Counted from the stretch's first letter, positions 3,862 through 55,940 are shown. The stretch is DNA of 64,000 nt from Dehalococcoidia bacterium (GCA_965213725.1 OZ243924.1:303544-367543), one strand, 5' to 3'. Program-made: numbers and translations. Notes: generated by a model not told the origin, from the letters alone.

Positions 3862-3867
3862 ACACTT

Positions 3868-11148: not shown

Positions 11149-11232
11149 CGGCAAAGAGGGGGCGCTCCGGCGCCAACCGGGGGACGGCATCGTTCGGTGG
11201 GCCGGGCTTCCGGCTCCGGCGCATACAAGCAT

Positions 11233-35259: not shown

Positions 35260-35287
35260 GGGCCGCAGTGATAGTATCCTGCGGCCC
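35260..35287 (+). terminator. GC-rich hairpin after the GMC pair (no U-tract)
   Basis: gggccgcag-tgatagtatc-ctgcggccc forms a perfect 9-bp stem 27 nt after the stop codon. Confidence 0.45.
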
Positions 35288-35363
35288 CGCGTCATTGTCA
35301 GGCCAAACCCGCAAGGATTGTGGCCCGCGAGTCTTCCCGCAAGTCTTATGGTATGTTGTGAGC

Positions 35364-38300
35364 ATGAACAGCCAAGGGAGACACAAAGGAATCCTGGTTG
35401 TAGACCGGCAGTCCCCGCAATTGAAAGATGCCCTCTGGCGGCTGGTGGAAGAAGCGAAACGGGAAGGCGGTATGCTCGCCCCGGTTACCGTAGTCGGGCC
35501 ATCGCAGTACGCCAACCTGAGCTTGCGGCAGGAACTGGGACGCCGGGGATTCGTCAATGTCCGTTTCATCCTGTTTCCCATGCTGGCGGAATTTCTGGGC
35601 GGGGCCGCAATGGCCGGAGCCGGGCGCAGACCTCTCACCCCGGTTCTCGAAACCGTGGCGGTGCAGACCATATTGAGGCAGGCCGGGGAACCCTTGTCCC
35701 AAGTTCGGGAACACCGCTCCACCCAGTCCGGCGTGCGCGAATCTTTCAGGCAGTTGCGCCAAGTATCCGGCGCAGTGTTGTCGGAACTGGAAAAGACGGG
35801 GGGAGTCCGCCGGGAGGTTGTCTGCCTGTATCGCAAATTCCGTCAACTCACCGGAGACGGCTGGTACGACGGCGAGGACTTGGCGGAGGCCGCAGCGGCC
35901 GATGTAAACGCCGGCGCTGCCCCGGCCCTGCGAGAGTTGGGCCTGATGGCGTTCTACCTGCCCCGCGACCTTTCTCCGGGTCAGGTGCATCTGATCAGCG
36001 CCCTCGCGCGCCGAGGCCCTTGCGCCGTACTGCTCGGCCTTACGGGAGACAGTGAGGCCGACGCCCCGGCGGATCAATTGGCCGGCACGCTCCAGCCCCT
36101 GCTGGGAGAACCCCAAAGGGCGGGCGGCGACAGATCGGAAACGCCGCTGCTTCCCGGCCAAGCCGGTCTTCACGTCGCGCCGGACGCCCACGAGGAAATC
36201 CGGCGGGTGATTCGCTCCATAATGGCGAACGCTGAATCAGGAATTCCGTTACACCGGATGGCAGTGCTATACCGGGCTGACCCTCCGTATAGCTCGCTGG
36301 TGCGCGATGAGCTGGAGCTGGCCGGCATTCCCATGGCCGGGCCGGGCCGGAAACCGCTGGGCGGCACCGCCGCCGGACGGACGCTGGCCGGGATGCTGCG
36401 GCTGTCCTCCGCTCTGGGCACTGAGGACGCCCTGCGGCGCGACGACCTTATGGCCTGGCTCACGGGGAGTCCCATCCGGCGGCCCCGGAACATCAGGCGC
36501 GAGGACTTCAGCCCGGCCCGATGGGACGCCATCAGCAGGAAAGCGGGAGTAGTCCGGGGACTCGGCCAGTGGCGCAAGGAATTGACCGTCTACGCCAGCC
36601 ACAAGGAAAGCGAGGCCGAGGGGGCCTACGAGGAGGTTTCGGAGGCCCGCGTCGAGGGTATGCGCGCGGACGCTCAGGCGGCCGGCGCAGCGCTCCTTTT
36701 CGTCGAAGAGCTGGCGAAAGACCTTCGTCCGCCCCGAAGGGCCGGGTGGAGAGAGTTCTGCCGCTGGGCCGAAGGACTCCTGCGCAAGTACCTGCGCCGC
36801 ACCCTATCCGAGGATGAGTTGACGGCCAGGGACCATATCGAACGGATGCTGCGGGAACTGTCGGCGGCCGACAGCCTCAGCTCGGAGGCCACTCTGACGG
36901 CTTTCCGGCAAGTGGTTGAAGATTATTTTCAGAGGCCGGAGGGACATATAGGCACTACCGGAGAAGGCGTGTTTGTCGCCCCCTCCGCCGCCGCAGCAGG
37001 AATGAGCTTCGATGCTGTGTGGATGGCGGGAATGATGGAAGGCTCCGTGCCGCCGCCGCCAAAGGAGGACCCTCTGCTCCCGGAAGATGACTGGCAAAAG
37101 GCGGGCGGGCCGCCCGTTTTGGACCAGCGGAGATCCCAGGAGCGCTACGACTACCTGTCCGCCTTGGCCGCTGCGCCTTGCCGGGCGCTCTCCTTTCCGG
37201 TTTCCGACCCTCAACTGAGGCGCCGGGCCTTCCCTTCTCCGTGGCTCCTGGAGCAGGCGTCAGCTCTGGAAGGCGAGGCGGTGACCTCAGACAGCCTCAC
37301 CAGGCTGGGTCGTCCGTGGCTCACCGTCGCCGTCTCGCTGGAAGACTCCCTGTCGAGGGTCGAAGTTCCGGCGGATCGCCACGAATATGACTTGCAACGG
37401 CTGCTGCAATGGAAGCGTGAGCCTTCGGAGGGCGTCAGCATCCAGCACCCGCTGGTAAAAGAAGGCCCGTTGGCGCGGGCGGCGCAAATGGGCCGCGGCC
37501 GGGCCAGCCGCTCCCTTACGGAGTTCGATGGCAACCTGTCATCGGTGGCCGAAGAGGCGCGGTTTGCCCTGAACCTGAGCCGTTACCCTCTATCTTCCAC
37601 CAGTTTGGAAACCTGGGCCGTGTGCCCCTTCCGCTATTTCCTTGGGCGCGTGCTCTATCTGAGCGCCCTGGACGACCCGGAGGAGGAAACCACCATCAGC
37701 CGAATGAACCGGGGCAGCCTGATACATGAGATTTTCGAGAGGTTCTTCAAGGAAGCCGAGCAGGGCGGCAGCCTGCCCGTGGACGGTCGGGCCTGGAGTG
37801 AAGAAAGCACCCGGCGACTCCGGCATATCGCGCATGACGTGTTCCGGGATTACGAAGGGCGGGACTTGACCGGCAAACAACTGCTGTGGCAAGCGGAAAA
37901 GCAGAAAATCCTAGCCCACCTGGATTTATTTCTGCAAAAAGACGCGGAACTTCGAGGGGAGTACGGTTCGGTTCGCACCACCGTAGAGACCAAGTTCGGC
38001 GATGGGGGGGAATGGCAGGAAGCCGTTGACGAAGCCACGCAAACCAGGTTCCGGGGGGCCATTGACCGGGTTGACCTTAACGCAAGCGGCGCTCCGGCGC
38101 TCATCATAGACTACAAGGTCGGCAAGCCGGATTCGTACAAAGCGCTGGAAAACGATCCGATAGACCACGGGAAACGCCTCCAGTTGAGCATCTACTCCCT
38201 AGCGGCAAAGCGGCATTTCCCCAATGCCGGGAGTTTGTCGGCCATCTATTGGTTCTTGAATGCCGAAGAGCAAGATTCCCAAAAGAAGTTCCAGCGCGTT

Positions 38301-38600
38301 CCAGACGAGCCTTTCGACATCAACAACCCTGAAACACTGAAAAGGTTCCGCGAAGGCGTATCCGCGATTACCGAAGGAATTCGCGGCGGCGTGTTTCCCG
38401 CCAACCCCGGCCCGCCGGGGTGGAGCAACAACTGTACCTACTGCGACTTCGACACACTGTGCCAGTCGCGCCGGACACGGCTTTGGGAAGAGAAGAAAAG
38501 GGATGAACTGGTATCGGGCTACCTGTCGCTCACCGGCGAAGCGCCGAAGCCGTCCGGTGAGGCCAGCGCGGAGTCCGGCGAAGAAGGGGAATGGCAGTGA
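35364..38600 (+). CDS. AddB-like helicase-nuclease subunit (PD-(D/E)XK nuclease with Fe-S staple)
   Basis: Start at ATG 35364 (MNSQGRHKG...), giving 1078 aa. The C-terminal nuclease block is GAIDRVDL...LIIDYKVGK. The cysteines WAVCPFRYF plus NNCTYCDFDTLC (C-x2-C-x5-C) are arranged like the AddB iron-sulfur cluster. I saw no canonical Walker A in the N-terminal region. Confidence 0.7.
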   Translation: MNSQGRHKGILVVDRQSPQLKDALWRLVEEAKREGGMLAPVTVVGPSQYANLSLRQELGRRGFVNVRFILFPMLAEFLGGAAMAGAGRRPLTPVLETVAVQTILRQAGEPLSQVREHRSTQSGVRESFRQLRQVSGAVLSELEKTGGVRREVVCLYRKFRQLTGDGWYDGEDLAEAAAADVNAGAAPALRELGLMAFYLPRDLSPGQVHLISALARRGPCAVLLGLTGDSEADAPADQLAGTLQPLLGEPQRAGGDRSETPLLPGQAGLHVAPDAHEEIRRVIRSIMANAESGIPLHRMAVLYRADPPYSSLVRDELELAGIPMAGPGRKPLGGTAAGRTLAGMLRLSSALGTEDALRRDDLMAWLTGSPIRRPRNIRREDFSPARWDAISRKAGVVRGLGQWRKELTVYASHKESEAEGAYEEVSEARVEGMRADAQAAGAALLFVEELAKDLRPPRRAGWREFCRWAEGLLRKYLRRTLSEDELTARDHIERMLRELSAADSLSSEATLTAFRQVVEDYFQRPEGHIGTTGEGVFVAPSAAAAGMSFDAVWMAGMMEGSVPPPPKEDPLLPEDDWQKAGGPPVLDQRRSQERYDYLSALAAAPCRALSFPVSDPQLRRRAFPSPWLLEQASALEGEAVTSDSLTRLGRPWLTVAVSLEDSLSRVEVPADRHEYDLQRLLQWKREPSEGVSIQHPLVKEGPLARAAQMGRGRASRSLTEFDGNLSSVAEEARFALNLSRYPLSSTSLETWAVCPFRYFLGRVLYLSALDDPEEETTISRMNRGSLIHEIFERFFKEAEQGGSLPVDGRAWSEESTRRLRHIAHDVFRDYEGRDLTGKQLLWQAEKQKILAHLDLFLQKDAELRGEYGSVRTTVETKFGDGGEWQEAVDEATQTRFRGAIDRVDLNASGAPALIIDYKVGKPDSYKALENDPIDHGKRLQLSIYSLAAKRHFPNAGSLSAIYWFLNAEEQDSQKKFQRVPDEPFDINNPETLKRFREGVSAITEGIRGGVFPANPGPPGWSNNCTYCDFDTLCQSRRTRLWEEKKRDELVSGYLSLTGEAPKPSGEASAESGEEGEWQ

Positions 38601-41600: not shown

Positions 41601-41986
41601 TGGCGCGCCGGGCGATAGGAAGTCCTGCGGTGCGCCGGGCCGTGGGCAGCGGCCGCTACTGGCGGGAGGTTCCGGTCGCCATGCCCGCAGGCGGAGGCTC
41701 CATACAGGGCTTCATAGACCTGCTGTTTGAGGAAGACGGGGAACTGACGGTAGTGGACTACAAGACTGACGACGTGCGCGAAGGAGCCGAGACCGCCTTG
41801 GAGCGCTACCGGATGCAGGGCGCGGCCTATGCCCTAGCCTTGGAACGAGCCACCGGCAAGACGGTCAAGGAAGTGATCTTCCTCTTCCCTCGGCCCGAAC
41901 CCGTCATAGAAGCGACGCTCACCAACTTGGCCTCGCTCAGAGACGAAGCTGAAGCCTTAGCACTGGAGCGGCTGGGCCGCGGGTAA
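38591..41986 (+). CDS. AddA/RecB-like UvrD-family helicase with C-terminal PD-(D/E)XK nuclease
   Basis: 1131 aa. It overlaps the upstream stop by 10 nt. Walker A is ASAGTGKTTSL, and the UvrD motifs (LLIDESQDTDPIQ, VGDPKQSIYRFRRAD, VMTVHGAKGLEFPVVVL, LMYVASTRARDHLV) are present. The nuclease motif is GFIDLLFEE...LTVVDYKTD. Confidence 0.85.
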   Translation: MAVTSQFIPGDIAARQKISERLDETLFVEASAGTGKTTSLVQRVVNLVASGRATIGSIAAITFTEAAAAELRDRARQELEKAASDQSRSEAERSRCRQAADGLGQAYFQTLHSFASALLHQRPLEARLPPGFETTDAIAAELRFDAAWNDWLGRQLEGDTAIAPNLTMTLALGMTVKNLRDVANAFHLNYDGLQDAEFSDTLPDCEPATGPHQQAVAALINGLETLLDFCEKPGAEDRLYHYINEKLEECLHLAEEDLGVLGVCRRITEILPLKPGNIGSRSNWSIPPKEVRDQLQQIEAAARSAALPPILRELQKFVLDYAVTRREAEGRAEFQDLLVWAHELLRDNIEVRDYFRSRFTHLLIDESQDTDPIQAEIAMFLAEDVAPGVEPGDRPKDWGKIIPEKGKLFVVGDPKQSIYRFRRADVNQMYELRNRMRGETVELTQNFRSQEPVTAWVNYLFEKWLGEGDADSEGRIQAAYPEGGMDARWKASTPHQYKPRVWALADEATGDSMDSVREIESADIARLIHHITRSPWQVLDQGADNSTGETYRPATYADICILMPRRTGLRQLELALEDANVPYRLESASLIFETQEILDLMNCFKAIDNPSDQVATVAALRSPAFGCSDVELFLHHENGGSFNYRARRKQPRPGPVADALDVLDDYHRRRVEDSPGALIDRFIRERLLMEAAVSHPRMREQWRRYRFMVEQARLFSEAVESGRNSLRSFLEWLQNQMEQDARVTEMPVPEEDEEAVRVMTVHGAKGLEFPVVVLTGINSPPRHTVGPALFDRNNRRVEVGVGPQQNRIATPGYAEMSERERLMQQAEQVRLMYVASTRARDHLVLSLRRTAKGGGSSAAAKISEYLKGSAGLWEAAPAGQPETPPAEDRPAMAAPLDHSLEGRRQWVEQRKKLLKEMGRPSFVAATALDRKDADRNQDSEYDAKPERDPAEPWRRGRAGTLIGRALHGVLQSADLETGSDIDVWAKAQAIVEEIPDSEKDIAQLARRAIGSPAVRRAVGSGRYWREVPVAMPAGGGSIQGFIDLLFEEDGELTVVDYKTDDVREGAETALERYRMQGAAYALALERATGKTVKEVIFLFPRPEPVIEATLTNLASLRDEAEALALERLGRG

Positions 41987-41988
41987 AA

Positions 41989-42621
41989 CTACGGCCCAAG
42001 CTGACTCAGAAAGGCGGCAAGATGTTGCAGCGCGGGGGAGTTCCAGTTCCAAACGCCGGCGTCGGCCGCTTCTCCCAAGCGGCGCCCCGGTTCCTCAGCG
42101 ACGGCCAGATAGGTATGCAATTTTGCCTTGCTGAGAGCGCCAGCGGAAATGCCGCCCGGATTTCTGCAAGCCACGTAGGTATCTACACACTGCAAGGCCG
42201 ATGCGTCGCCAATAGAGCGAAGGCACAAGTCCTCCAAATTACCGCACGATTTCCCGTCAGGCAGTATCGCTAAGGAAATGTACGGCTGACCTGTTGCTGA
42301 GACCTGAAAGGGCGCGGGCGGAACCGGAAGGCCAGCGCCGCCGAGGGCGCTTCGCAAACTCTGATACGCTGCTTGAGCGTCGCTGTCAGCATCACGAACC
42401 AGCGCCAGTCGCCGCAAGTTGGGATACCCTCTGGCCGTGACCAGCGTGTTTTTCAGGAATAGCGCAAAGTTGTTCACGCCATTAACCGACGCAATCTGAA
42501 CTTGGCACAGGTTTAGCTGTCGAAGGAAGGCGTTAAAAAACCTGGCATCATCCGCTCCTTCCACCAATAGGAGGGCCTCGCCTTCTACATCCCTGAATTG
42601 ATACCGGCCTAGGCTGACCAT
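41989..42621 (-). CDS. small Toprim-like protein (DUF3226 / DUF4435 / RloB-type), partner of the upstream ATPase
   Basis: 210 aa. An N-terminal acidic motif ALLLVEGADDARFFNAFL is followed by LALVRDADSD, which matches the Glu ... DxD arrangement of Toprim/OLD-type nuclease domains. Its ATG overlaps the ATPase stop codon (TGATG, 1 nt shared). Confidence 0.55.
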   Translation of the reverse strand: MVSLGRYQFRDVEGEALLLVEGADDARFFNAFLRQLNLCQVQIASVNGVNNFALFLKNTLVTARGYPNLRRLALVRDADSDAQAAYQSLRSALGGAGLPVPPAPFQVSATGQPYISLAILPDGKSCGNLEDLCLRSIGDASALQCVDTYVACRNPGGISAGALSKAKLHTYLAVAEEPGRRLGEAADAGVWNWNSPALQHLAAFLSQLGP

Positions 42622-43751
42622 CAGCGAAGCTCTGCTCCGTAAGACAGCGTGAAGTCAAGGGCCTCGAATGAGTAAGTAGTGGCAACGATTCCGCTATCCC
42701 TGCGGTCTAGACGGTGGATGTGCAAGTCCTGCTGCTCTGCGGCGGCAAAGGCATCGCGGGCCGCTGCCATACACTCGTAGCTATGGGTAGTGGCGAACAC
42801 CTGGACGTTGAAGCGTTGCGAAAGGCGGTTAAGGTTTTCCCAAACCCCTTTAAGCGCACTGTGATGCAAGCCGTTTTCCACTTCGTCAATGAATATCATA
42901 CCATTTCTGGCCCCATGGAATGACAACGCCATTGACAACAGCCTCCCTACGCCGTCGCCCAAAAATCCCATGGGCACCGGGCGGCCCAAGCCAACATCCG
43001 CGTAAATCATCGGGGCCGGCGGTGCAGCGATGGTGGTCAGCCGCTGAATTCTCGGATCTACTGTCTTCAGGCAGTTGACAATACTGTCGGCAAATCCTTC
43101 CAGCTCTATATCTCCAAATCTGGCGACTTCCTCTTCTGACCTGTTGCGGTGGCGAGCGCTCAAAAAGACTCCTGCGGGACGCACAGGCATATTTGCTCGA
43201 TTCATTGCCATGCCTTCGCTCGATATCGCCAACTGAACAAATGGCATTGAATTGAGCATCGGGCCATCAGATTTAGTCCACCATCCCGTCGAAGCAAAGT
43301 GCTGGCCGTCTTCATCAGTGTAGTCCAACGATATTTCGGTGTCGGAGACGGCCGATACATTCGCTTCCCGAAGCAATCCGGGGATCGGCAGTTCTTCTTC
43401 GGACGCCTGCGGCACAAATACTTTGGTGTTTCTAGGCTGCAACTTGATTTTCAGAGAGCGCTGGGAGTTGTTCCAATCCCCCTTTGCCTCCAACGCAATG
43501 GTTCGCTGCGGATCGAAATCGCGGAACAGGTCATGGAGCAGCCGGCGCGGGTCCGGCCCGGCGATGCCGCGAAAGCTGTTTAACCGCAGGCCCAGATCCG
43601 GCGAGTTAGGCCCGGAGTGAAGCCACAGCGCCTCCAGCAGGGCAGTCTTGCCAGTGTTGTTTTCACCGCAAATCAGGTTGACCCGGGCCAGTGGCTCGAC
43701 GGTAAGATGCTCAAAGCAGCGGAAATTTTGGATAGCGAATGAGGTGTACAT
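42621..43751 (-). CDS. ABC-type AAA ATPase (AAA_21/AAA_15-like, OLD/AriA/RloA-like)
   Basis: 376 aa. The N-terminus is MYTSFAIQNFRCFEHLTVEPLARVNLICGENNTGKTALLEAL (Walker A). A signature-like GDGVGRLLSMAL, Walker B MIFIDEVENGLH and H-loop FATTHS are present, with a long insertion between Walker A and the signature. Single lines counted give about 45-55 % GC. Confidence 0.8.
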   Translation of the reverse strand: MYTSFAIQNFRCFEHLTVEPLARVNLICGENNTGKTALLEALWLHSGPNSPDLGLRLNSFRGIAGPDPRRLLHDLFRDFDPQRTIALEAKGDWNNSQRSLKIKLQPRNTKVFVPQASEEELPIPGLLREANVSAVSDTEISLDYTDEDGQHFASTGWWTKSDGPMLNSMPFVQLAISSEGMAMNRANMPVRPAGVFLSARHRNRSEEEVARFGDIELEGFADSIVNCLKTVDPRIQRLTTIAAPPAPMIYADVGLGRPVPMGFLGDGVGRLLSMALSFHGARNGMIFIDEVENGLHHSALKGVWENLNRLSQRFNVQVFATTHSYECMAAARDAFAAAEQQDLHIHRLDRRDSGIVATTYSFEALDFTLSYGAELR

Positions 43752-43785
43752 GCCAAACGCCTGCCTCTAGCTTACTTTGACCGGC

Positions 43786-44592
43786 CTATTTCCTCGTGGC
43801 CCGGCCCTTGAGGGCCATCAGAGATAAGCCAATGCTCAAAACGCCCACTGCCGCCACGGCGATTATACCATCACGAATGGCCTGGGCATCCCAACCCCCG
43901 TAGATCAGCGAGCGCAGGGCCGCCAGTACGTAGGTCACCGGGTTGTAGTCCGCAGCGGCGGAGAGCCAACCGGTCATGGCCTCCTGCGGCACGAACAGCG
44001 AGGTCATAAACAGGAAGGGAAAGAACAACAAGAAGCTGGTGTTTACCGCCGCCGCGTTGCCCGTCTTGAAGGCGATAGCGTAGGGAAAGCCGGAGAATAC
44101 CAGCCCCCAGATGCCCGCCAGCAACATGAACGCCAGTATTCCCAATATGCCGGTCTCAAACCCCACTCCGGCGATGAACCCCATGATGATGACCGGAAGG
44201 GTTAACGCCACGACCAAGAAGAAGTCGGCCACCATCAGGCCCAACAGCAACGCCAGCCGGTTGACCGGCGTCATCACCAGCCGGTCGAAATAACCGCTCT
44301 GGATGTCGGCCACCACGGTGGTGGCGCGGGAGATGCCGGTTACGGCGAACAGCACCGCCACCGGCAGTTGGAAGGCGCGGTAGTCCAACCCCGGGATGCT
44401 CTCGGCGAAATCCTCCAGCGCCCCGACCGTCATTATGAACATGAAGACTGGTATCACCAGGGCGGGTATCGTTGTTTCCGGGTCTCTGGCTACCGACCTT
44501 AGCGCCCGCTCGGAAACTGAAATGAGGTCCGGGATAAAGCCTGCCTTCCGGCCCTGTATGGTCTGCCGGTGCCGGGCGGTGGACGTAGCCAT
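43786..44592 (-). CDS. ABC-2-type transporter permease
   Basis: Start at ATG 44592 with an AGGAG SD; the track ORF extends to 44745. The product is 268 aa with 6 TM helices and lies downstream of a DrrA-like ATPase. Confidence 0.8.
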   Translation of the reverse strand: MATSTARHRQTIQGRKAGFIPDLISVSERALRSVARDPETTIPALVIPVFMFIMTVGALEDFAESIPGLDYRAFQLPVAVLFAVTGISRATTVVADIQSGYFDRLVMTPVNRLALLLGLMVADFFLVVALTLPVIIMGFIAGVGFETGILGILAFMLLAGIWGLVFSGFPYAIAFKTGNAAAVNTSFLLFFPFLFMTSLFVPQEAMTGWLSAAADYNPVTYVLAALRSLIYGGWDAQAIRDGIIAVAAVGVLSIGLSLMALKGRATRK

Positions 44593-44644
44593 TCGTTTCT
44601 CCTGGTAATTGCAGTTTAACGGAGCCTTTTGCCGGGCTGAGGCA

Positions 44645-45655
44645 TTACCCGGCGGGCAGTTGGCCCGTCGCGCCGTCGGAAGCAACCTGGGACGAGCCAT
44701 CACTTTGGAAGCGGGATCCGGTGACTTGCAGGAATACGTCGTCAAGGGTCGGGGTTCGCAGTGTGAGCTCCTGCACCGTCAGCCCGGATTCGTTCAGCCG
44801 CAGGGCCACTACGCTGATTACAGACGCGCCGTTTTCCACGCTGACGGCTATTTCGCTGCCATGGGCCTCCAGGGACATGACCGCCGGTATCCCGGCCAAT
44901 GCCTCCACGGCAACGCTGGCGTCACCCTCCAAGCGGGCCACGATAAGGTCGGAACCACGGGCCCGCTTCAATTCGTTGGGCGATCCTTCAGCGGCCAGTC
45001 TTCCTTGGTCAATGATTCCGACGCGCTCGGCCAGGGCGTCGGCTTCCTCCAGATATTGAGTGGTCAGGAATATGGTCACGCCCAAGTTGGCGTTTATGCT
45101 ACGCACCTCTTCCCAAATGCGCGCGCGGCTGATGGGGTCGAGGCCGGTGGTCGGCTCGTCCAGAAACAGCACGTCGGGAGAGTGGATCAGCGCGGCGGCC
45201 AAGTCGAGGCGGCGTTTCATTCCGCCGGAATAGGTGCCGATCAATCTATCCATAGCCTCGCCGATGTCCACCAGGCCGGAGAGTTCTTCAATGCGGCGGG
45301 CGGATTCCCGTCGGCCCAGTCCGTACAGTTGCCCTTGGAGCCGCAGCAGTTCCCGCCCGGTCTGCTTGTTGTCCAGCGCGGCCTCCTGGAGGGCCACGCC
45401 GATGCGGCTGCGAACCTGATCGGCCTCGCGCATAACGTCGTATCCCGCCACCCTGATGCGCCCGCCGGTGGGGGCCAGCAGGGTTACCAGCATTCGGATG
45501 ACGGTGGTTTTCCCAGCGCCGTTGGGGCCCAGGAACCCGTAAATTTCGCCTTGCCGCACGGTCAGGTCAACGCCGTCCACGGCTCGCACCGCTCCGAACC
45601 GGCGCACCAGCCCCTCGGTTTCGATGGCGTTGGAATCGTAAGCAACAGCGTTCAT
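44645..45655 (-). CDS. ABC transporter ATP-binding protein (DrrA/ABC-2 exporter type)
   Basis: 336 aa. Walker A is GPNGAGKTT, the signature is [12 protein letters not shown] and Walker B is [14 protein letters not shown]-terminal accessory domain is present. Confidence 0.9.
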
Positions 45656-45809
45656 TGAAGCATCCTGACCTGGAAAATACTGCTCAAAATGCCTTTGGCA
45701 GTACGGATTTCGTACTATTCAATAAATGATAGCATAGCCCCAACAGTAAATTCGCCCGGCGAAAGTCAGGAATTTGCCAGTTGCGGGCGGGCAGTCAAGG
45801 CGGGCGGAG

Positions 45810-46625
45810 ATGAGACGAAGGCTTTACGAAATTCTGGAGACCGGGCAAAGGGGCGACTGGGTGAGCCAGGTCGTGGATACGGCGTTGATGCTGCTGATTA
45901 TCGGCAACGTGGCGGCCCTGGTTATCAGCACCGATGAGCGAGTCCACGCCGCCGCGCCCGGTTTCTTCACTTATTTCGAGGGAGTGTCCTTCAGCATATT
46001 CGCCGTTGAGTATCTGTTGCGGCTCTGGGCTTGCACTGCCGAACCCCGGTTTGCCCATCCGGTCGCTGGGCGGCTGCGCTATATGCTCCGGCCGCTGATG
46101 GTGGCCGATGCGGTAGCGGTACTGTCGTATTTCATCATTCTGCTGCTGCCGGCCGCGGGGCTGGATTTGGGGGCCTTCCGGGCGCTGCGTCTGGTGAGCC
46201 GAATGGCGCGGCTGGCCCGTTACTCACCGGGGCTGCAAGCCTTGGCTTTAGCCATTTCGGGGCGAAAAAACGAACTGCTGGCGGTGGTGTCCGTGCTGGG
46301 CGCTCTGCTGGTGCTGGCTTCGTCGCTGATGTATTTCGCCGAAGAGGCAGCGCAGCCGGACAAGTTTTCCAGCATTCCCGCGGCGATGTGGTGGAGCATC
46401 ATTACGGTCACCACCGTCGGCTATGGCGACGTTGCGCCCATCACGCCTCTAGGCCGTCTGCTGGCCGGTATAATCGCGCTGCTGGGCATCGGGATTTTCG
46501 CCCTGCCGGCCGGTATTCTAGGCTCCGGCTTTATGGAGCAAGTCAACCAGCGGCGCCATCTCCCCGCCATCAGAACGTGCCCGCACTGCGGGCGGGAAAT
46601 TGAGGGCGACTCGCCGCCAGGTTAG
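45810..46625 (+). CDS. potassium channel (ion-transport family, TVGYGD selectivity filter)
   Basis: Start at ATG 45810 (MRRRLYEILE...). There are several TM helices, including an Arg-spaced segment FRALRLVSRMARLARY (S4-like). The pore is WWSIITVTTVGYGDVAP, and the C-terminal tail contains CPHCGREIEG. Confidence 0.85.
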   Translation: MRRRLYEILETGQRGDWVSQVVDTALMLLIIGNVAALVISTDERVHAAAPGFFTYFEGVSFSIFAVEYLLRLWACTAEPRFAHPVAGRLRYMLRPLMVADAVAVLSYFIILLLPAAGLDLGAFRALRLVSRMARLARYSPGLQALALAISGRKNELLAVVSVLGALLVLASSLMYFAEEAAQPDKFSSIPAAMWWSIITVTTVGYGDVAPITPLGRLLAGIIALLGIGIFALPAGILGSGFMEQVNQRRHLPAIRTCPHCGREIEGDSPPG

Positions 46626-48051: not shown

Positions 48052-51000
48052 ATGATACAGCTATTCCGGCTTTCCTTGTGGGTGATGCGGCGGCGGTTGC
48101 GCGGCTCTTGGGGGCTGTCATCCGTGACCGCCCTGGGCATCCTGACCGCCGTGGTGCTGCTGAGCGCCGCCGCCCTCTACTCGATAGTTCTGGCGGAGGC
48201 CGGGGTGCGTCACGCCATGTTCAGCGCGCCGTCAGGTTCACTGCACGTACAGGTCTTGACCCACAACCGTCCCCTGGGCCCGGAAGATTACGGCGAACTC
48301 CGCGACATTGCCGAGAAGACGGCGCAGCGGAGAATCGGCTTTATGACGGTGGGCCAAGAGCGTTTCGGCCGCACCCAGGTTGGGATGGCCGTCTCCACCA
48401 ACCCCGAACCCCGCATCCCCCCCTTGGCCGCCCCTTCGGGCAGGCCCTTCTTTATGACCGGATTCACGGAGCATTCCCGGATCCTTGAAGGAAGCTGGCC
48501 CCGCACCGGCGGCACCAGCGCGGGAGGCGGAGCTGCCGGGCCTAGCGGGGTTCAGCTGGAGGCCGTCGTGGGGCGGCGCGTCGCCAGGGATATGGGCTAC
48601 AAGGTAGGCACAAAGCTCTTCATCACGCCCTTCAGAACCTCGCCGGAAGAGCGCATCATCCTCAACATTGTAGGAATCGCCGACCCTATTGACCCCAGGG
48701 GAGAGTACTGGATGGGAGCGCCCAACCAGTTCAGCGTCCAGACCGTCGGGGAGATGCTGGTCGTGCCGGCCTACGTCACCGAGGACGACTTTCTGCAAGT
48801 CATGGGACGCCGTTTTCCCACGGCGGTGGGGGATTTCGGTTTCAACCTTTTTGTTGACCCTGCGGTAATCACTGCCGGGACGGTGGACGCCACTCAGGAA
48901 GCCTTGGCCGGTTTGGAAACCGACCTCAACAAAACCTACCCGCGAACTTTCGTTTTCAGCAGGCTGACCCTGACTCTGGAAGAGTTCGAGAAAGACTTGA
49001 CGCTGGCCCGGGTGCCGGTCTATGTGTTCATTTCCTTGGTCTTTGTCATAGTCCTGTATTTTCTGGCGTTGATTACCGGAATACTGGGCCGCACCCAAGC
49101 CGACGAACTTGGCCTGATGCGCAGCCGGGGCGCCAGCGTCATCCAGGTATGCGGAGCATTGCTCTTGGTCGAGGGCTTTATTGCGCTGGCGGCGGTAGCC
49201 ATTGGCCCGCTGCTGGCATGGCTGATTGTCCGGTTCCTTCTTCTGCCCACCTTCGGCGAACTGGATGGCGGGCCCATCCAAGTAGTTCTGTCTGGCGACA
49301 TATACTGGATTGGGGCAATCGGCGCAGTCCTGTCTGTATTCGTATTGACCATCTCGGTAGCCGGGCGGGCGCGGACAGGGATGGCCGATGCGCAAGCCGG
49401 CCGCTCTCGTCCCCCCGCGGTCTCTTTCTTTCATCGCTACTACCTGGACCTGCTGGCCGTCTTGGTCGCCGGACTGGTCTGGTGGCAGTTCCAGCAGCGG
49501 GACGGCTTTGCGTCCCGCGCCTTGGCGTCGCGCGGCCTTGAAGTGGATCCGGCGCTGATTCTCGCCCCGGTGCTGGCGCTGCTGACGGCGGCGCTGCTCC
49601 TGATGCGGGTTCTGCCCTTGCTGGTTCGCTCGCTGGTATGGCTGTTCCCCCCTCTCGGCTCCAATGCCGTGGCCGGGCCGGGGTGGTCTTCCGTCACGCT
49701 GGCCCGCTTGGCCCGCGACCCGGTGTTGCCTTCCTCGCTGGCGGTACTGTTGATGTTGGCCGCGGCCCTGGGCGTGTTCGGCGCCACCTTTCAATCCAGT
49801 CTGTCGAGAAGTCAAAGCGACCAGACCCTCTACCGGATTGGCGGCGACGCCGTGGTTTCCGGCGCAGGGGTCACCCCGGCCCTCGCCGAACGCTTGACAT
49901 CCGTGCCGGGAGTGCAAGCGGCAACGCCCGTTCTGCGGGATTCGGTCAGTTTAGTCCAAGGGCACACAACCATACCCGCTTTGCTGATTGCCGCCGATCC
50001 TCAAGCAATGGCCCAGTCGGCCTGGTTTAGAGAGGACTTCGCCAGCGTCACGCTACCGGAGTTGGCTTCATACATCCGCCCGTCCCACGACGGTCACGGC
50101 CCGCGCTCCGGCACAAATAACGACGCGGTTGGCGTCCCCCTTCCGTCCGGCGCAGACGGAATTGGCGTATGGCTGGAAACAGGAGACCTGACTGAGCGGG
50201 AACTGCAATCCGACATCAACGTATGGGCGCGGCTGGCCGATGCCGATGGGCGATACCGAAACGTGTCTCTCGGCGGGTTCGGCGGCCCGGCGGACGACAC
50301 CGGTGCAGGATGGCGGTTTATGGAGGGCGAACTGCCCCGGCGGGCAGCGGCGGGCGATAGTCAGTTGTTTCTGACAGCGGTTTTTTTCAGCACCAGTTCC
50401 TTCGTAAGCGTGGATGCGGCCCGCATCAGCATAGACGGCTTCACCGCCTTCGGCCCGTCGCTCCCGCAGGAAGGGGTCGTGCTGGAAGAGTTCGATACCC
50501 TCGGCCATTGGAACCCCCTGGTCACCACCGGGATCATCCCGGACAACCTGGCAGCCGGCGCCCCTCGTCCCCGCCAGGACCAGGCCAACCCATCCCCGGA
50601 GCCTGCCGAGGGGGCGGCCAGCCTCACTTTTTCTTGGGAAGAGCCTTTCCAGGGAGAGCATCGGGGCATTCACATCCCGCCGGTCTCCCTTCCCCTTCCG
50701 GCCATCGGCGGCGCCGGACTGCGCCAAGGGCAAATCCTGCGCATAGGACACGGGCGGGCTTCCATCCCGGTAGAGGTGGCAGGAGTGAGCGATTTGTTCC
50801 CCACGGTGACCAGCTTCCGCCGCCCATTTCTGCTTATGGACATCAACGCCTACCTTGCCTACTTGCGTTTTCTCCCTCCGGGCAGCGCCCAGACTTCTCC
50901 ACAGGAAATTTGGCTCTCCCTGGACCCGGCATACGACCGCAAGAGCGTGACCGCCGAGGTTGCGGAGCAACTGCCCCCTCTCGTTTCTGTAACCGACCGG

Positions 51001-51483
51001 CAGGAGGCGGCAACCGCCGCTTCCACCAATCCTCTGGCCGGAGGAGGGTGGAATGGACTCACCGGCCTGAGCATGACCGGGATAGGGCTGGTTGTCTTGA
51101 CTGCCCTGCTGCTCCACAGCGGCGCCCCGTATCTTTACAACTACGGGCGGGCCGGGGGCGTGGATACTGCCGTCGCTAGGGCCCTCGGTATGTCCAAACC
51201 CCAGCTTTTCCTGTCACTGGGGGCCGAAAAGTGGCTGATGGGAGGCACGGCCATCATTATCGGGGCAGCAATCGGTTACTGGCCCGGATTGGCGCTCGTG
51301 AGGCTTCTCGACCCAACTTCACAAGGCGCCGGGCCGGTGCCGCCCCTGATTCCCGAGGTACACGGCGTGCTGCTGTTCTCGATCCTGATTGGCTTGACGG
51401 CTGCCCTGACTGCCTCGGCAGTCTTTGCAGCGTTCCTAGCCCACCGCGCCAGACCCGTAGACGTGCTGCGGGGAGGGAGCTAG
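48052..51483 (+). CDS. very large FtsX-family ABC permease, 1143 aa (two FtsX modules)
   Basis: An N-terminal TM helix is present. FtsX-type helical bundles lie around LMRSRGASVIQVCGALLLVEGFIALAAVAIGPLLAWLIV and ARALGMSKPQLFLSLGAEKWLMGGTAIIIGAAIGYWPGLALV. Long soluble segments lie between them. There is no SD, and TATAAT ends 6 nt before the ATG. Confidence 0.8.
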   Translation: MIQLFRLSLWVMRRRLRGSWGLSSVTALGILTAVVLLSAAALYSIVLAEAGVRHAMFSAPSGSLHVQVLTHNRPLGPEDYGELRDIAEKTAQRRIGFMTVGQERFGRTQVGMAVSTNPEPRIPPLAAPSGRPFFMTGFTEHSRILEGSWPRTGGTSAGGGAAGPSGVQLEAVVGRRVARDMGYKVGTKLFITPFRTSPEERIILNIVGIADPIDPRGEYWMGAPNQFSVQTVGEMLVVPAYVTEDDFLQVMGRRFPTAVGDFGFNLFVDPAVITAGTVDATQEALAGLETDLNKTYPRTFVFSRLTLTLEEFEKDLTLARVPVYVFISLVFVIVLYFLALITGILGRTQADELGLMRSRGASVIQVCGALLLVEGFIALAAVAIGPLLAWLIVRFLLLPTFGELDGGPIQVVLSGDIYWIGAIGAVLSVFVLTISVAGRARTGMADAQAGRSRPPAVSFFHRYYLDLLAVLVAGLVWWQFQQRDGFASRALASRGLEVDPALILAPVLALLTAALLLMRVLPLLVRSLVWLFPPLGSNAVAGPGWSSVTLARLARDPVLPSSLAVLLMLAAALGVFGATFQSSLSRSQSDQTLYRIGGDAVVSGAGVTPALAERLTSVPGVQAATPVLRDSVSLVQGHTTIPALLIAADPQAMAQSAWFREDFASVTLPELASYIRPSHDGHGPRSGTNNDAVGVPLPSGADGIGVWLETGDLTERELQSDINVWARLADADGRYRNVSLGGFGGPADDTGAGWRFMEGELPRRAAAGDSQLFLTAVFFSTSSFVSVDAARISIDGFTAFGPSLPQEGVVLEEFDTLGHWNPLVTTGIIPDNLAAGAPRPRQDQANPSPEPAEGAASLTFSWEEPFQGEHRGIHIPPVSLPLPAIGGAGLRQGQILRIGHGRASIPVEVAGVSDLFPTVTSFRRPFLLMDINAYLAYLRFLPPGSAQTSPQEIWLSLDPAYDRKSVTAEVAEQLPPLVSVTDRQEAATAASTNPLAGGGWNGLTGLSMTGIGLVVLTALLLHSGAPYLYNYGRAGGVDTAVARALGMSKPQLFLSLGAEKWLMGGTAIIIGAAIGYWPGLALVRLLDPTSQGAGPVPPLIPEVHGVLLFSILIGLTAALTASAVFAAFLAHRARPVDVLRGGS

Positions 51484-51487
51484 GGAA

Positions 51488-54400
51488 ATGGCTTCGCTCC
51501 TGAGATTCGCCTACGTGATGGCCGCCGGACGCTTTCACCCCTTCAAGAGCGGGAGCGGCTGGAGGCTGGAGGCGGTGCTGTTCGGCAGCATCCTCTTGGC
51601 CGTCGCCCTGATGTCCAGCGGTGTCATCTTCTCCAACCTGCTCGCCAACGCCGCGCTGCGCGGAGAGCTGGTGCAAGCGGCGCCGGAAGACGTTAACTTC
51701 CGGGTGCGCTCCTTCAGCAGCCGCGACGACCCCCAGGATGTCCAAGGCCGCCGCCAAGCGTTCAAGGAGCGGGAAGTCTTCGTGGAGCAACGGCTCATCG
51801 AGCCTTTTGTCCCATATCTCAAGGAGCATTCCCGCTATCTGGAAACCGCCACCTTTTTCTTTCAGGGGCGCCCCAACCTGGAATTGGACAAAGACACTAG
51901 GCCCAGGGGGTCTATCGCCTATCTCAGCAACATTTCCGGCCGGATTAGAGTGGTGGAGGGGCATTGGCCGGAAGGAGCCGCCATTCCGGGCCGCCCGCTG
52001 GACGTGGCAGTGGACCGGCTGGGAGCGGAACTGCTTCAACTGGGAGTAGGCGACGTTATGGAAGTCTTCCCGGCAACATCATTCTCCGAATGGCCCCCGT
52101 CCGAAGTGCGCATCGCCGCCATATTCGAGCGGGTGGACCCCTCGGATGAATTCTGGCACGGCCTCTCCTCTGCCGTCAGCAGGCAGGATGACCGATGGAC
52201 GCTGATACCTCTTTTCGCCGACGAGGACGCTCTGATTGAGAGAGTCCTGGGAACGTATCCTTCGCTGTACACCGATACGACCTGGCATTTCTTCCCTGAC
52301 CGGCGGAAGATGCGCGCCAGCGAAATCGAAGACGTGCAGGCAATACTCGCCAACATCCAGGGTTCGCTCTCCAGCGGACTCAAGAACTCCAGCTATTCGA
52401 TACGGCTGGACAATCTGCTTCGCAGCTTTGAAGAGCAGCTCCTGCTGGCTCGTTTGCCGTTGTATCTCGTGCTGTTCTTGGTGACTGGCATCCTGGTCTA
52501 CTACCTGGCTCTGGTGGCGGGTCTCATCGTCCGGTCCAGGTCAGGCGAAATCGCCATGCTCAAGAGCCGGGGAGCCATGGGCTGGCAGCTCGGCGTTCTC
52601 GGCTTTGGCGAAGGGCTGCTATTGGCCGTCCCTGCTGTGATTGCAGGCCCCTTCCTCGCGTTGGGAGTGGTCAAGCTGCTGGGCGTGATATTCTTTGAGC
52701 TGAGCGGATCCTCCGAGGCGTTGGCCGGAGTGCCGGCGGGCGTTTCCGCCGAAGCCTTCCTGCTGGGTCTGGCCGGGGGCGGGCTGGCGGTGGCGGTCTT
52801 TACCGTGGCTACCCTGGCTGCGGCCCGCCGCGGCAGCATCGAAGCGCGACAGGCCGGAGCGCGTCCTCCCACCGCCAGCCTGCTCCACCGCTACTACTTG
52901 GACTTGGTCCTGCTCGCCTTGATTGGACTGCTATGGTGGCAGCTCCAGAGCCGGGGCACGTTCCTTTTGCAGTCCCTGGGCAGCCGCGAGTTGACCATTG
53001 ACTACAGCCTGTTGCTGGGGCCGGCCCTGGGGCTGACCGCTGCCGGGCTGATTGTGCTGCGTCTGTTTCCCTGGGCCGCAGCGGTACTGGCCCGCGCCGC
53101 CGGGCCAGTGGGGCCCACCTGGCTGGTGCACGTTCTGCGGCATCTGGCCCGCGACCCCTTGACGCCTGCAATGCTTATTGTCTTGGTGATGCTCTCCACC
53201 GCCTTGGGCGTAGTGGGCAGCGCCTTCTCTTCCACCCTGGAGCGCGGCCAGCAGGAACGGGCCTTGTATGAAGCCGGCGCGGAGCTGCGCATCCAGCACG
53301 GCGGCTGGAATCAGGACGAGGAGCCGGCCCGCCATCTTAAGACCGTGGAGTCCCTAGAGGGACTGGGGGCGGCGGCCGAGGCATTCCGCTCCCCGGGCTA
53401 CCTCACGACCACCGGCTTCAGCACCTCCGGCACGCTCTTGGCCGTTGACGCCGACAGCATCGCCGACGTCGCGTGGTTCCGCAAAGACTTTGCCGACGGC
53501 CGCTCCCTCGATGACCTGTCGCTAACGCTGAGGCGCGGCATCTCAGGCACGCTTCCGCCGCTGGCGGAAGACGGGCTTCTCCTGCCGCCAGGCGCAACGG
53601 CCCTAGCGGTCTGGGCCAGACCGGGCGGTTCCGCCCGGGGCGTTGACCTCTGGGCTAGGTTCAGGGACTCGGAGGGGCGCGTCGCAGACGCCCGGTTGGG
53701 CGCCCTGCAAGACACGCAGTGGTCGCGCTTCGTCTTCGACCTGGCTACTCCGGTGTCGAACAATGAAGGCATAGCAGGAAGGAGGCAAAGCACCGCCTTG
53801 AAGCCTCCCTTGAATCTGATTTCTATCTCGGCCCGCAGCCGCCTCCATGAAGGCGCAGGAGGGGCGGTATTCCTCGGAAGGGTGGAGGCGGAAACTCCGG
53901 GCGGGATAAGAACAATACACGACTTCAGTGCCACGAATGGCTGGCATGTCATTGAGGACTTTCGCAAGCCCGGTCTGTATTCCCTGGATCTCAGTCAGTC
54001 CGCCGCTGGCGGGGAGTTCGACGTAACCAGCCGGTTCAGTTGGGCCTCCGGGGGCGTTGGCCTTAACGGCATCAGGGCCGGAGGAGCGGACGAACCGCTC
54101 CCGGCGCTGGTCAGCTCGCAGTTCCTGGAAGTCACGGACGCCGAAGTTGGCGATACCATCATCCTGGGTATGTCCACCTATGCCCTGCTGCTGGAAGTGG
54201 CCGCCGAGGTGGAATTTTTCCCGACACTGAATCCGGACGACCGGCCCTTTGCCGTGGTGGACCTATCCCGGTTTACCCAGGCGGCCATCCGGTACAGCCC
54301 GCGCCCGCCCCGGGGGGCCAATGAACTGTGGCTGGCCGGCCCTGACCCTCTCCCGGAAGGGCCGGGAATTGGCGCGGCCGATGCTGAAGCGGCGTCGGCG

Positions 54401-54913: not shown

Positions 54914-54959
54914 CGACTTCCCTCCCCCTTCGGGTGAGGATCAGGGTGAAAGCCGAAAC

Positions 54960-55940
54960 ATGGACTCGCAAATCCAGTATCGCAACGCCCCGGCCGCATC
55001 CCTCCCGCTCCCCCAAGGAGAGGGCCGGGGTGAAGGCGCCCCCGGGCCGTTCATCCTTTGCCGTGACTTGTTCAAGATCTACAAACGGGCCGATCTGGAG
55101 GTTGTGGCGTTGCGAGGGCTGGACCTGACGATCCAACAGGGCGAACTCGTCGCCATCGTCGGGGCCAGCGGCAGCGGCAAGAGCACTCTGCTCAACATCC
55201 TGGCCGGCCTGGACCGGCCATCGGCGGGGCAGGTCCAGGTGGGCCAGCGCGACCTGCTGGACATATCGGAGCAGGGGCTGGTGGAATACCGCCGGAAGGA
55301 CGTTGGTTTCGTCTGGCAGGCCACTGCCCGCAACCTGCTGCCCTATCTGAGCATAGCCGACAACATTGAGCTTCCCATGGCCTTGGCCGGACAGCCCGGA
55401 GGCCGCCGCAGAGGCTGGGCCGTGACATTGCTGGAAGCCCTGGGCGTCGGAGACAAGGCGGATCGGATGCCCCACCAGCTTTCCGGCGGCGAGCAGCAAC
55501 GCGCCGCCATCGGCGTCGCCCTCGCCAATCAGCCGCCCTTGCTGCTGGCCGACGAGCCTACCGGCGAGCTGGACACCGCCAACGCCGTGCTGGTGTTCGA
55601 GATGCTGCGAACCCTGAACCGCAACTTCGGCGTTACCGTCATCATTGTCACCCACTATCCGGCGGTCTCTCAGTACGTAGACCGGGTGGTGCATATACGC
55701 GATGGGCGCATCAGCTCGGAAACTGTCTCGGCCGCTTCGTACCGGCCTGACGGCACGCGCACCGAGGACGAGTTTCTGGTGGTGGACGAGGCCGGACGCC
55801 TGCAACTGCCCGAGGAATACGCCCACCGCTTCCGCCGCCGGGGACTGGCCCGCATTGGCTTGGAAGACGGACGCATTACCCTCTTGCCGCCCGACGGCCA
55901 TGACCATAACGGATCCCTTCCTCCCCAGGAAGAGGGTTAG
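54960..55940 (+). CDS. ABC transporter ATP-binding protein (MacB/LolD-type) with C-terminal extension
   Basis: Walker A is GASGSGKSTLLN, the signature is [15 protein letters not shown] and Walker B is [12 protein letters not shown]. About 90 extra residues follow the ATPase core. The first ~30 codons (…LPLPQGEGRGEGAPG) come from a repeat-like element, so the true start is uncertain. Confidence 0.8.
   Translation: MDSQIQYRNAPAASLPLPQGEGRGEGAPGPFILCRDLFKIYKRADLEVVALRGLDLTIQQGELVAIVGASGSGKSTLLNILAGLDRPSAGQVQVGQRDLLDISEQGLVEYRRKDVGFVWQATARNLLPYLSIADNIELPMALAGQPGGRRRGWAVTLLEALGVGDKADRMPHQLSGGEQQRAAIGVALANQPPLLLADEPTGELDTANAVLVFEMLRTLNRNFGVTVIIVTHYPAVSQYVDRVVHIRDGRISSETVSAASYRPDGTRTEDEFLVVDEAGRLQLPEEYAHRFRRRGLARIGLEDGRITLLPPDGHDHNGSLPPQEEG

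Follow-up and report, generated by a model that had tools for sequence, protein, structure and literature searches.

A DUF3226-partnered, OLD-like ABC-ATPase/Toprim module of a Dehalococcoidia bacterium: a candidate anti-phage system with an exchanged central domain

A two-gene module lies on the minus strand at positions 41989-43751 of a 64,000-nt stretch of DNA from a Dehalococcoidia bacterium (GCA_965213725.1 OZ243924.1:303544-367543), the whole of which is called the window here. Its first gene (42621..43751, minus strand) encodes a 376-aa ATP-binding cassette (ABC)-type ATPase of the AAA_15/AAA_21 families that is AbiLi-like and matches the PADLOC family PDC-M38A, and its second gene (41989..42621, minus strand) encodes a 210-aa Toprim-fold protein of the DUF3226/PDC-M38B kind, a putative nuclease effector. 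Both assignments combine open reading frame (ORF) calls with Pfam and PADLOC hidden Markov models (HMMs), AlphaFold2 (AF2) models and Foldseek searches. The genes meet in a TGATG stop/start overlap (42619..42623, minus strand) of the type associated with translational coupling; the minus-strand junction reads CGC TGA TGG, and one base is common to the TGA stop of the ATPase gene and the ATG of the DUF3226 gene. Downstream, the stop of a convergent addA-like gene ends at 41986 and the stop codon of the small gene begins at 41989, leaving 2 nt between the two, and upstream a 34-nt leader (43752..43785, minus strand) runs from the stop of an ABC-2 permease gene to the ATPase start. A preliminary description made from the window alone had proposed a split, OLD-kind defence candidate composed of an ABC ATPase together with a Toprim-like protein. 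The reading frames, the overlap, the 2-nt gap and the motifs that it quoted for both proteins are all present where it placed them, and the proposal itself is borne out by the HMM matches, residue conservation and structures presented below.

The ATPase is, by its motifs and predicted fold, an ABC ATPase of the SMC/Rad50/OLD (AAA_15/AAA_21) kind. Residue conservation was scored across 33 homologues, among which the Walker A/P-loop GENNTGKT (residues 29-36; 43644..43667, minus strand) has G29, G34 and T36 invariant and K35 retained in at least 90%, and the Walker B region with its following residues, FIDEVENGLH (residues 287-296; 42864..42893, minus strand), has E290, E292, N293 and H296 invariant and D289 in at least 90%. 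The H-loop ATTHS (residues 320-324; 42780..42794, minus strand) is invariant at T321, T322, H323 and S324, and an ABC signature-like motif, LGDGVGR (residues 264-270; 42942..42962, minus strand), placed through the alignment with the related locus L111 described below, is invariant at G265, G267 and R270 of its GDGVGR portion (265-270). Pfam matches to AAA_15 (1.7e-21) and AAA_21 (6.4e-18) both exceed their cutoffs. Among PADLOC models the best is AbiLi PDLC02336 (6.6e-56, residues 1-376 against profile positions 1-340 of 340), followed by PDC-M38A (3.6e-53), of which five models are matched; AriA (1.2e-23 and 6.3e-21), GajA, PtuA and Old all fall far below these two. No NCBIfam cutoff, equivalog cutoffs included, is reached by the ATPase, and a weak N-terminal likeness to RecF (TIGR00611, 7e-11) is far under its cutoff. 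In the AF2 model (pLDDT 83.9) a beta-rich insert of ~110 residues, with a disordered loop at 114-131, separates the Walker A helix from the signature helix, and Foldseek retrieves SMC and Rad50 heads, Thermus OLD, GajA, PtuA and retron-associated ATPases at E values of ~1e-12 to 1e-10. The 376-aa ATPase with Walker A, Walker B, H-loop and long insert that had first been described from the window is thus confirmed by Pfam, PADLOC, conservation and model alike.

The small protein had been judged impossible to place in one family. That judgement is overturned by a match to PF11536 (DUF3226) at 4.4e-34, with 118.5 bits where the cutoff is 27, over positions 2-206 of the 208 in the profile, and the same domain is present in 71/71 homologues. 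PADLOC models of PDC-M38B are matched at 8.6e-15 and 5.6e-13 over residues 16-208. Other Toprim families fit less well: the Pfam OLD-like_TOPRIM match is sub-threshold (0.0027, 18.6 bits against 23.2), the AriB HMM reaches E=0.025 over residues 17-82 only, and AbiLii models, Pfam RloB and DUF4435 (PF14491) give no match to the small protein at E<=1. When conservation is scored across 32 homologues, E21, G22, D77, A78, P121, E130 and C133 are invariant and R76 and D79 are kept in at least 90%. E21 belongs to LLVEGADD (residues 18-25; 42547..42570, minus strand), the first Toprim acidic motif, and D77 and D79 form the DxD motif of VRDADSD (residues 75-81; 42379..42399, minus strand), while E130 (codon 42232..42234, minus strand; within NLEDLCL) is a third invariant acidic residue.

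The AF2 model of the small protein (pLDDT 94.5, pTM 0.90) has strands at 16-20, 42-45, 71-77 and 114-120 alternating with helices, plus a C-terminal helical bundle; E21 lies at the end of strand 1 and D77-x-D79 follows strand 3. The best Foldseek matches in the PDB are the C-terminal Toprim regions of class 2 OLD proteins, 6njv, 6njx and 6njw (E 1.8e-4 to 4.2e-4) and 6nk8 (1.5e-3), with probabilities of 0.99-1.00 and TM scores of 0.41-0.49, borderline values just below the usual 0.5 same-fold mark. The Toprim effector of retron Eco2 (probability 0.98) and Thermus OLD (0.89) come next. Weak matches in BFVD are enriched for primase and topoisomerase Toprim domains, none of them at E<0.05, and the sole solved structure reached by sequence profile is PH0156 of Pyrococcus horikoshii (PDB 2P62, E=5e-4). 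Since motif layout, conservation and structure agree, the reading of the protein as a full-length DUF3226 member with a Toprim fold and an intact acidic site is supported, and nuclease activity is predicted. The suggestion of a Toprim-like fold with conserved acidic residues has therefore held, both in the model and its Foldseek matches and in the invariance of E21, D77 and E130.

A further feature of the same protein is a set of cysteines in the helices after the Toprim core, C133 being invariant and C145 and C152 present in at least 90% of the 32 homologues. All three are missing from the most distant members (P0068, P0070 and P0071). A possible role for these cysteines is as a metal or redox site. 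The family itself is large: a DUF3226 profile search of 1.84 billion representatives yields 6,649 clusters (clustered at 50% identity) at E<=1e-3 and 1,448 at E<=1e-30, almost every one a stand-alone protein of 195-250 aa.

The association of the two genes extends well beyond the window. Nine cellular loci were compared (the window itself, L111, L112, L003, L004, L005, L006, L007 and L008), together with viral-contig loci that include L009, L010 and L014. An AAA_15/AAA_21 ATPase gene stands immediately upstream of the DUF3226 gene in 9/9 cellular loci, and the DUF3226 gene is intact in eight of the nine, overlapping its ATPase gene in each. The TGATG junction is identical in the closer relatives L003, L004, L005 and L006, an overlap of at least 1 nt is found in L007, L009 and L014, and in L010 the start codon comes directly after the stop codon, with no overlap. 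Among IMG/VR viral contigs, 12 of the 22 loci found with the ATPase profile have a DUF3226 gene directly after the ATPase gene; in four of the 10 that do not, the downstream partner ORFs were scanned and gave no Pfam assignment.

The genomic contexts of the pair are varied. The window, L111, L112 and L003 carry it at the addA/ABC-2 junction, L004, L005 and L008 between CoA-transferase and short-chain dehydrogenase genes, L006 (a metagenome-assembled genome (MAG) of Anaerolineaceae) after a ribosomal-protein/MazG region, and L007 among small hypothetical genes. Type I restriction-modification (R-M) genes (N6_Mtase/Methylase_S, in L008 also a ResIII helicase) followed by Peptidase_M78 and DUF4411 genes occupy L004 1137-5014 and L008 1-4599, 4-8 kb upstream of the module. 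A HicB-like gene is also present in L004, and a Zeta_toxin/AAA_33 gene lies nearer the module in L004, L005 and L008. A DNA methyltransferase gene stands beside the pair in L010, and the L009 contig carries an Amidase_2 protein. In the lambdoid prophage L014 (IMGVR_UViG_2721755834_000004, 3304-11206) a distant version, whose ATPase is 26% identical, is found between O-/P-like replication genes and a Q-like antiterminator gene. The lambdoid region between replication genes and antiterminator commonly holds accessory and defence cargo. The pair is thus found elsewhere in defence-related surroundings, in a prophage, beside a DNA methyltransferase and near type I R-M genes, as would be expected had the preliminary description been right about its function. 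Considered together with the analogies drawn below, these sequences and models make it probable, though well short of certain, that the window carries a two-gene, translationally coupled, OLD-like ABC-ATPase/Toprim module of PDC-M38 type whose most likely role is anti-phage defence of the abortive-infection type.

The most informative comparison is that between the window and L111, which are almost isogenic over 13 kb. Protein identities are 98.1% for AddA, 99.4% for the ABC protein, 99.6% for the permease, 98.9% for the ion channel and 99.8% for the nucleoside transporter, whereas the small protein is 95.2% and the ATPase 82.7% identical. Nucleotide identity in 100-nt windows is 0.89-1.00 throughout except for one block, at ~42,900-43,500, where it falls to 0.59-0.84 with zero gaps. 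The block corresponds to a central tract of the ATPase, codons 97-288 (42888..43463, minus strand), which takes in the beta-rich insert together with the signature-like motif and the four Walker B residues that come first (M285-I288), and which is a putative trigger sensor. Within it (gene nt 290-863; L111 8289-8864) there are 187 mismatches in 574 nt, or 67% DNA identity, against 9 mismatches in the other 557 nt, and the breakpoints are sharp. The tract has dS 2.17, which is saturated, and dN 0.24, while dS is 0.04-0.08 in the rest of the gene and in the flanking genes. With dN/dS at 0.11 in the tract, both alleles are under purifying selection; elsewhere in the ATPase the ratio is <=0.07. 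Substitutions in the tract are of all 12 classes (97 transitions and 90 transversions), and 110/187 lie at third codon positions.

Several sources of such a tract were considered and rejected. In-situ hypermutation, a diversity-generating retroelement (DGR) and recent positive selection are ruled out by the saturated dS, the dN/dS of 0.11 and the unbiased spectrum, and no reverse transcriptase domain, as would accompany a DGR target, occurs among the neighbouring genes. An assembly chimera is unlikely, each ATPase allele being recorded on two contigs. The tract of L111 is 81-87% identical to those of clade relatives, like its core, while that of the window finds a best match of 68% among 120 homologues although its core is 99% identical to that of L111; the window copy is therefore the replaced one, with its donor unsampled. 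A word-seeded database search for that donor using the tract alone (191 aa) returned at most 59% identity over the full tract, and it missed P0072, the window's own protein, so that the search is incomplete. On these alignments the window ATPase shows the import, by homologous recombination through the conserved core, of an anciently diverged and functional central-domain allele. Across 7,021 homologue pairs the median identity is 62.5% for the core and 49.7% for the tract, and the two are decoupled in individual pairs, some with a core at ~70% and a tract at ~25%, others with a core at 71% and a tract at 93%. This comparison, a single protein alignment, suggests that tract exchange is general in the family. 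It is the swap between near-identical strains that nominates the central domain as the probable trigger-recognition region.

The small protein differs between the window and L111 (9131-9763) by 10 amino-acid changes, none at a catalytic residue. Its dN of 0.022 compares with 0.001-0.003 in flanking genes at similar dS, and the changes may be compensatory to the swap of the ATPase tract.

Base composition sets the module apart from its surroundings. Its GC content is 56.4% against a window mean of 63.3% (standard deviation 1.9% for 1763-nt windows), which puts it among the lowest 0.6% of such windows, and the window-wide GC minimum falls inside it. GC at third codon positions (GC3) is 0.62-0.64 in the module genes and 0.73-0.81 in neighbouring genes. 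The same kind of deficit, 10-30 points of GC3 under the flanks, is seen in 8/8 loci measured, one of them in a host at 49% GC, and its recurrence in seven loci of other genomes takes it beyond chance. Low GC belongs to the gene family and carries no time stamp. The drop had first been described as being to 45-55% GC; the direction was right and the size overstated. Moreover, GC3 within the module is lowest in the central tract of the ATPase (0.59 in the window and 0.48 in L111, the rest of the ATPase being at 0.69), so that much of the compositional signal first noticed sits in the exchanged domain. There is a caution here for genome scans, in that low GC beside housekeeping genes does not by itself imply recent acquisition.

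The history of the module can be followed at the addA/ABC-2 junction. A search of a genome collection for related loci, with AddA as the anchor, found one relative, L002 (Chloroflexi MAG SB0662_bin_29, VXOI01000011.1), whose AddA is 79% identical. Its junction is an empty site (13397-13415), where 13 nt separate the addA stop from the convergent stop of the ABC-2 permease gene and nothing of the module is seen; in pairwise alignment homology to the window stops at 41975 and resumes at 43786, the intervening 41976..43785 (no strand assigned) being the DNA missing from L002. The last few AddA codons of L002 also differ from those of the window. By AddA identity to the window the carriers at the same junction rank as L111 (98%), L112 (67%) and L003 (58%). 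All four carriers keep the convergent arrangement, with 0-23 nt between the addA and module stops. As L002 is nested among carriers by AddA identity, one loss is more parsimonious than several site-specific gains, and the module was probably lost once, in L002. ATPase identities are 72-83% and ATPase-core identities within the clade 82-89%, inside the range of host genes. Recent insertion of the whole module is ruled out by its presence at the same site in genomes whose AddA is just 58-67% identical, and on these comparisons the module has long resided at the junction in this Chloroflexi lineage. Its boundaries show no integrase, no tRNA and no obvious flanking repeat, though repeats were not formally searched for there.

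These findings revise the earlier suggestion that the module was horizontally acquired, which fails for the module as a whole and survives only for the recent import of the ATPase central domain. The companion expectation, that the pair would not be vertically conserved with host-like composition in all relatives, did hold, L002 being empty and the composition not host-like. A metagenome scan anchored on the ABC-2 permease recovered 80 loci. Of these, 61 extend for 600 nt or more downstream of the permease, and 0/61 carry the module or addA; because they have no addA and are not syntenic, these loci are uninformative on insertion versus loss. By these sequence comparisons the link between module and transporter is lineage-specific. 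The small protein departs from the host phylogeny, being 61% identical between the window and L112 and 69% between the window and L003, though L112 is the closer host (AddA 67% versus 58%); the W-L112 identity of the ATPase core is 89% (W being the window; in L112 the small gene is at 9131-9769 and the ATPase gene at 8001-9131). The nuclease gene may also have been exchanged, or may be fast evolving.

Long persistence at one locus is also what would be expected of a selfish toxin-antitoxin module, with the Toprim protein as toxin and the ATPase as antidote, having no dedicated anti-phage role and kept because its loss is costly. A tight two-gene operon with a start/stop overlap, found by itself in housekeeping surroundings, at the 3' ends of co-directional operons, is in keeping with such a module, and PARIS itself behaves like a type II toxin-antitoxin system (PMC13064643). 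Loss nevertheless appears to be tolerated, given the clean loss in L002 and the broken nuclease gene beside an intact ATPase gene in L008, where (9131-11196) DUF3226 is split into fragments of 35 aa and 112 aa with a DDE_3 transposase gene directly downstream, as if the nuclease gene were decaying in one lineage. Exchange of the central domain, moreover, would be expected of a recogniser of a changing external ligand and not of an antidote, and carriage in a prophage accessory region is likewise at odds with a purely selfish module. Addiction as the whole explanation is on this evidence unlikely, and it is in any case compatible with a defence role.

Adjacency to addA and addB in four genomes raises a second alternative, that the pair has a cellular role in DNA repair or chromosome maintenance linked to AddAB, in the manner of RecF/RecR (an ABC ATPase with a Toprim protein) or of Cran1, an OLD-family nickase required for the cell cycle. 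The weak N-terminal RecF similarity, the structural matches of the ATPase to SMC, Rad50 and RecN heads, the Cran1 precedent (PMC12796447) and surroundings that form no defence island could all be read in this way. However, L002 keeps addAB without the module, the pair occupies unrelated contexts outside the lineage (CoA-transferase genes, a ribosomal-protein/MazG region, prophages), and none of the 61 permease-anchored metagenome loci carries it. Its composition is persistently atypical, no NCBIfam equivalog cutoff is reached, and allelic replacement of a central domain would be unusual in a core repair factor; a housekeeping function of this sort is accordingly given a low probability.

The same adjacency could instead mean that a defence module guards AddAB, firing when a phage inhibits or overloads it, as P2 OLD does in RecBCD-compromised cells. 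P2 OLD kills recB-deficient cells, in which it responds to DNA defects (bioRxiv 10.64898/2026.07.10.737580), RecBCD inhibitors are cited as OLD triggers (bioRxiv 10.1101/2024.01.29.577857), and the convergent, near-abutting arrangement with addA is kept in four genomes. Yet the adjacency is lineage-specific, five other cellular loci and 12/12 viral-contig pairs not being next to addAB, and the genes are convergent and hence not co-regulated. The conserved adjacency to addAB could still be a functional link despite being lineage-specific, but AddAB surveillance as the principal function seems improbable.

Expression of the module bears on whether it is alive at all. Promoter-like and terminator-like sites within 41800-45900 are not above the expectation from shuffled sequence, and the scan of the 34-nt leader for a promoter was negative. 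Since such sites are no commoner than in shuffles, read-through is the simplest expression model, and the module is probably transcribed from the upstream ABC/ABC-2 transporter operon; a leader spacing of 33-34 nt is found likewise in L111, L112 and L003, and in L003 the leader also bears a recognisable sequence similarity to that of the window. With no promoter of its own detected, and with loss or breakage in some relatives, the pair might be regarded as an inactive, decaying remnant of a formerly mobile module. Both frames are intact and every catalytic motif is retained, however, the stop/start overlap has been kept, and dN/dS, at 0.11 in the swapped tract, does not exceed 0.07 in the remainder of the ATPase, all of which makes decay a highly improbable explanation.

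The flanks in the window are AddAB, the ABC/ABC-2 transporter, an ion channel, a nucleoside transporter, FtsX permeases, GMC oxidoreductases and amidohydrolases. A module resident in a defence island would have known defence genes only a few genes away; these are missing from the window flanks and present in some relatives. The addB-like product (35268-38600, 1110 aa) has a single Pfam match, a C-terminal PDDEXK_1 domain, and no helicase-domain match, and its gene overlaps addA by 10 nt. At 48052-55940, two tandem genes for very large FtsX-domain permeases (1143 and 1141 aa) precede an ABC_tran ATPase gene (54960-55940), and this arrangement is kept in L001, L111 and L112. Of RNA genes, the 64-kb window yielded just one, for a tRNA-Gln (anticodon TTG; 11233-11306, minus strand), which is far from the module and unassociated with it.

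The analysis establishes both folds, the conservation of the catalytic motifs, the pairing of the genes, their accessory distribution, the persistently AT-rich composition, carriage on viral contigs and the replacement of the central domain. A number of observations weigh against the anti-phage reading. The neighbours in the window and in most cellular loci are housekeeping genes with no defence island, and stable inheritance beside addAB over a deep divergence would suit a cellular role as well, for which the OLD-family protein Cran1, with its non-defence function, is a precedent (PMC12796447). The TM scores that relate the small protein to OLD Toprim regions are, as noted, borderline. A tblastn search with the small protein of 50,697 phage records and 72,556 plasmids gave no match, and no PHROGs family was found for it. 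HEC-01, a comparable pair of ATPase and TOPRIM proteins, gave no defence in assays (bioRxiv 10.1101/2024.01.29.577857), and full-text literature searches for 'DUF3226' and 'PDC-M38' returned no paper, nor was an experimental report found.

Better-known systems supply, by analogy, what is proposed for the formation of a complex, the trigger, the nuclease substrate and the phenotype of defence. In PARIS a hexamer of AriA sequesters AriB, the Ocr protein releases AriB in an ATP-dependent manner, and AriB cleaves tRNA-Lys (PMC11464382); P2 OLD is reported to be a tRNase activated when its oligomer is destabilised (bioRxiv 10.64898/2026.07.10.737580). By extension from these two, an oligomer of the ATPase would hold the DUF3226 Toprim nuclease inactive until the central domain (residues ~97-288) recognised a phage-derived trigger in an ATP-dependent step, upon which the nuclease would be released or activated. 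It would then cleave nucleic acid at a metal site formed by E21, D77-x-D79 and E130, with a substrate that could be tRNA, the target of AriB and P2 OLD, or DNA, that of class 2 OLD proteins, and cleavage would arrest the infected cell.

A broader and more tentative proposal, one we would hold open without leaning on it, is that DUF3226-partnered ATPases constitute a distinct and widespread split class of OLD-like immune systems in which the beta-rich central domain is an exchangeable specificity cassette. Were this so, strains ~98-99% identical would be swapping ancient insert alleles, with homologous recombination acting through the ATPase core that they share, and thereby retargeting one Toprim effector to other phage triggers, much as type I R-M systems do with the target-recognition domains of HsdS. 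Pairs of ABC ATPase and Toprim domains recur in bacterial immunity (OLD, Gabija, PARIS and AbiL), and inserts in the ABC ATPase have been proposed to set trigger specificity (bioRxiv 10.1101/2024.01.29.577857). The tract swap bears on how triggers are selected by the ABC-ATPase sensors of defence systems, and the near-isogenic window and L111 supply two ready-made, in-frame alleles of 192 codons for a comparison of specificity.

Among known systems the pair fits the catalogued PADLOC candidate PDC-M38, and its resemblance to PARIS and AbiL is one of architecture only. Adjacent genes on the same strand match the PDC-M38A and PDC-M38B HMMs in the expected order; the assignment was made from the PADLOC HMMs only. 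PDC-M38 and the window module thus have in common the small DUF3226-type protein, the ABC ATPase, their order and their adjacency. The candidate originates with Payne et al., who derived 145 phage defence candidates, stated to be untested, from gene cassettes lying inside BREX, DISARM and type I R-M loci (bioRxiv 10.1101/2024.01.29.577857), and whose supplementary file 8 assigns two cassettes to PDC-M38 (bioRxiv 10.1101/2024.01.29.577857). The window pair differs in not being embedded in this way, the candidate having been obtained by 'guilt-by-embedding', and in that its ATPase scores slightly better on the AbiLi model (6.6e-56). The likeness to PARIS and AbiL that was seen at the outset stands for the architecture and falls for membership, there being no DUF4435, AriB, RloB or AbiLii partner.

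With AbiL of Lactococcus (AbiLi and AbiLii) the module has in common a full-length AbiLi-type ATPase and the two-gene combination of ABC ATPase and Toprim protein. AbiLii is reported to superimpose on the OLD structure 6NJV (PMC13064643), which is also the top structural match of the window's small protein; the latter is nevertheless a DUF3226 protein, of another Toprim-fold family than the RloB-like AbiLii. PARIS (AriA/AriB; class 4 OLD) is likewise a split ABC ATPase and Toprim nuclease, and AriA HMMs are matched at 1.2e-23, but AriB is a DUF4435 protein of ~35 kDa and the window partner is a DUF3226 protein of 210 aa that is not of AriB type. AriA inserts are helical, forming a coiled-coil bundle (PMC11464382), whereas the insert of the window ATPase is predicted to be beta-rich, and no PARIS chain is among the best 50 PDB matches listed for that ATPase. 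In the AAA15/21 tree of Burman et al. the partners are TOPRIM-Old, DUF4435, RloB and DUF4276, and DUF3226 is not among them (PMC11464382).

Single-chain OLD proteins (class 1, OLD of P2 and Thermus; class 2, GajA and the OLD proteins of Burkholderia and Xanthomonas) resemble the module in that class 2 Toprim regions are the best PDB matches of the small protein, the ATPase matches Thermus OLD 6p74 and GajA, and the E...DxD acidic layout is the same. They differ in that ATPase and nuclease are separate polypeptides in the window, with no UvrD-like GajB partner. OLD classes 1-3, which fuse the ATPase and Toprim domains into a single polypeptide and add GajB in class 2 or a reverse transcriptase and ncRNA in class 3, were set aside, the module having two separate ORFs and no UvrD-like partner; addA is not a GajB-like part of it, being a convergent host gene that is kept in the module-free L002, and no retron RNA or other Rfam family was found in the test for OLD class 3. 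The last comparison is with PH0156 (2P62), whose profile alignment spans the LxVEGxxD and VRDxD motifs; it was deposited as 'Hypothetical protein PH0156', is uncharacterised, and is not among the best 50 Foldseek matches listed. The assignment to PDC-M38 and the recognition of a Toprim fold with intact acidic residues in the small protein together give the DUF3226-partnered branch, which is large and without an experimental or literature record, a testable mechanism.

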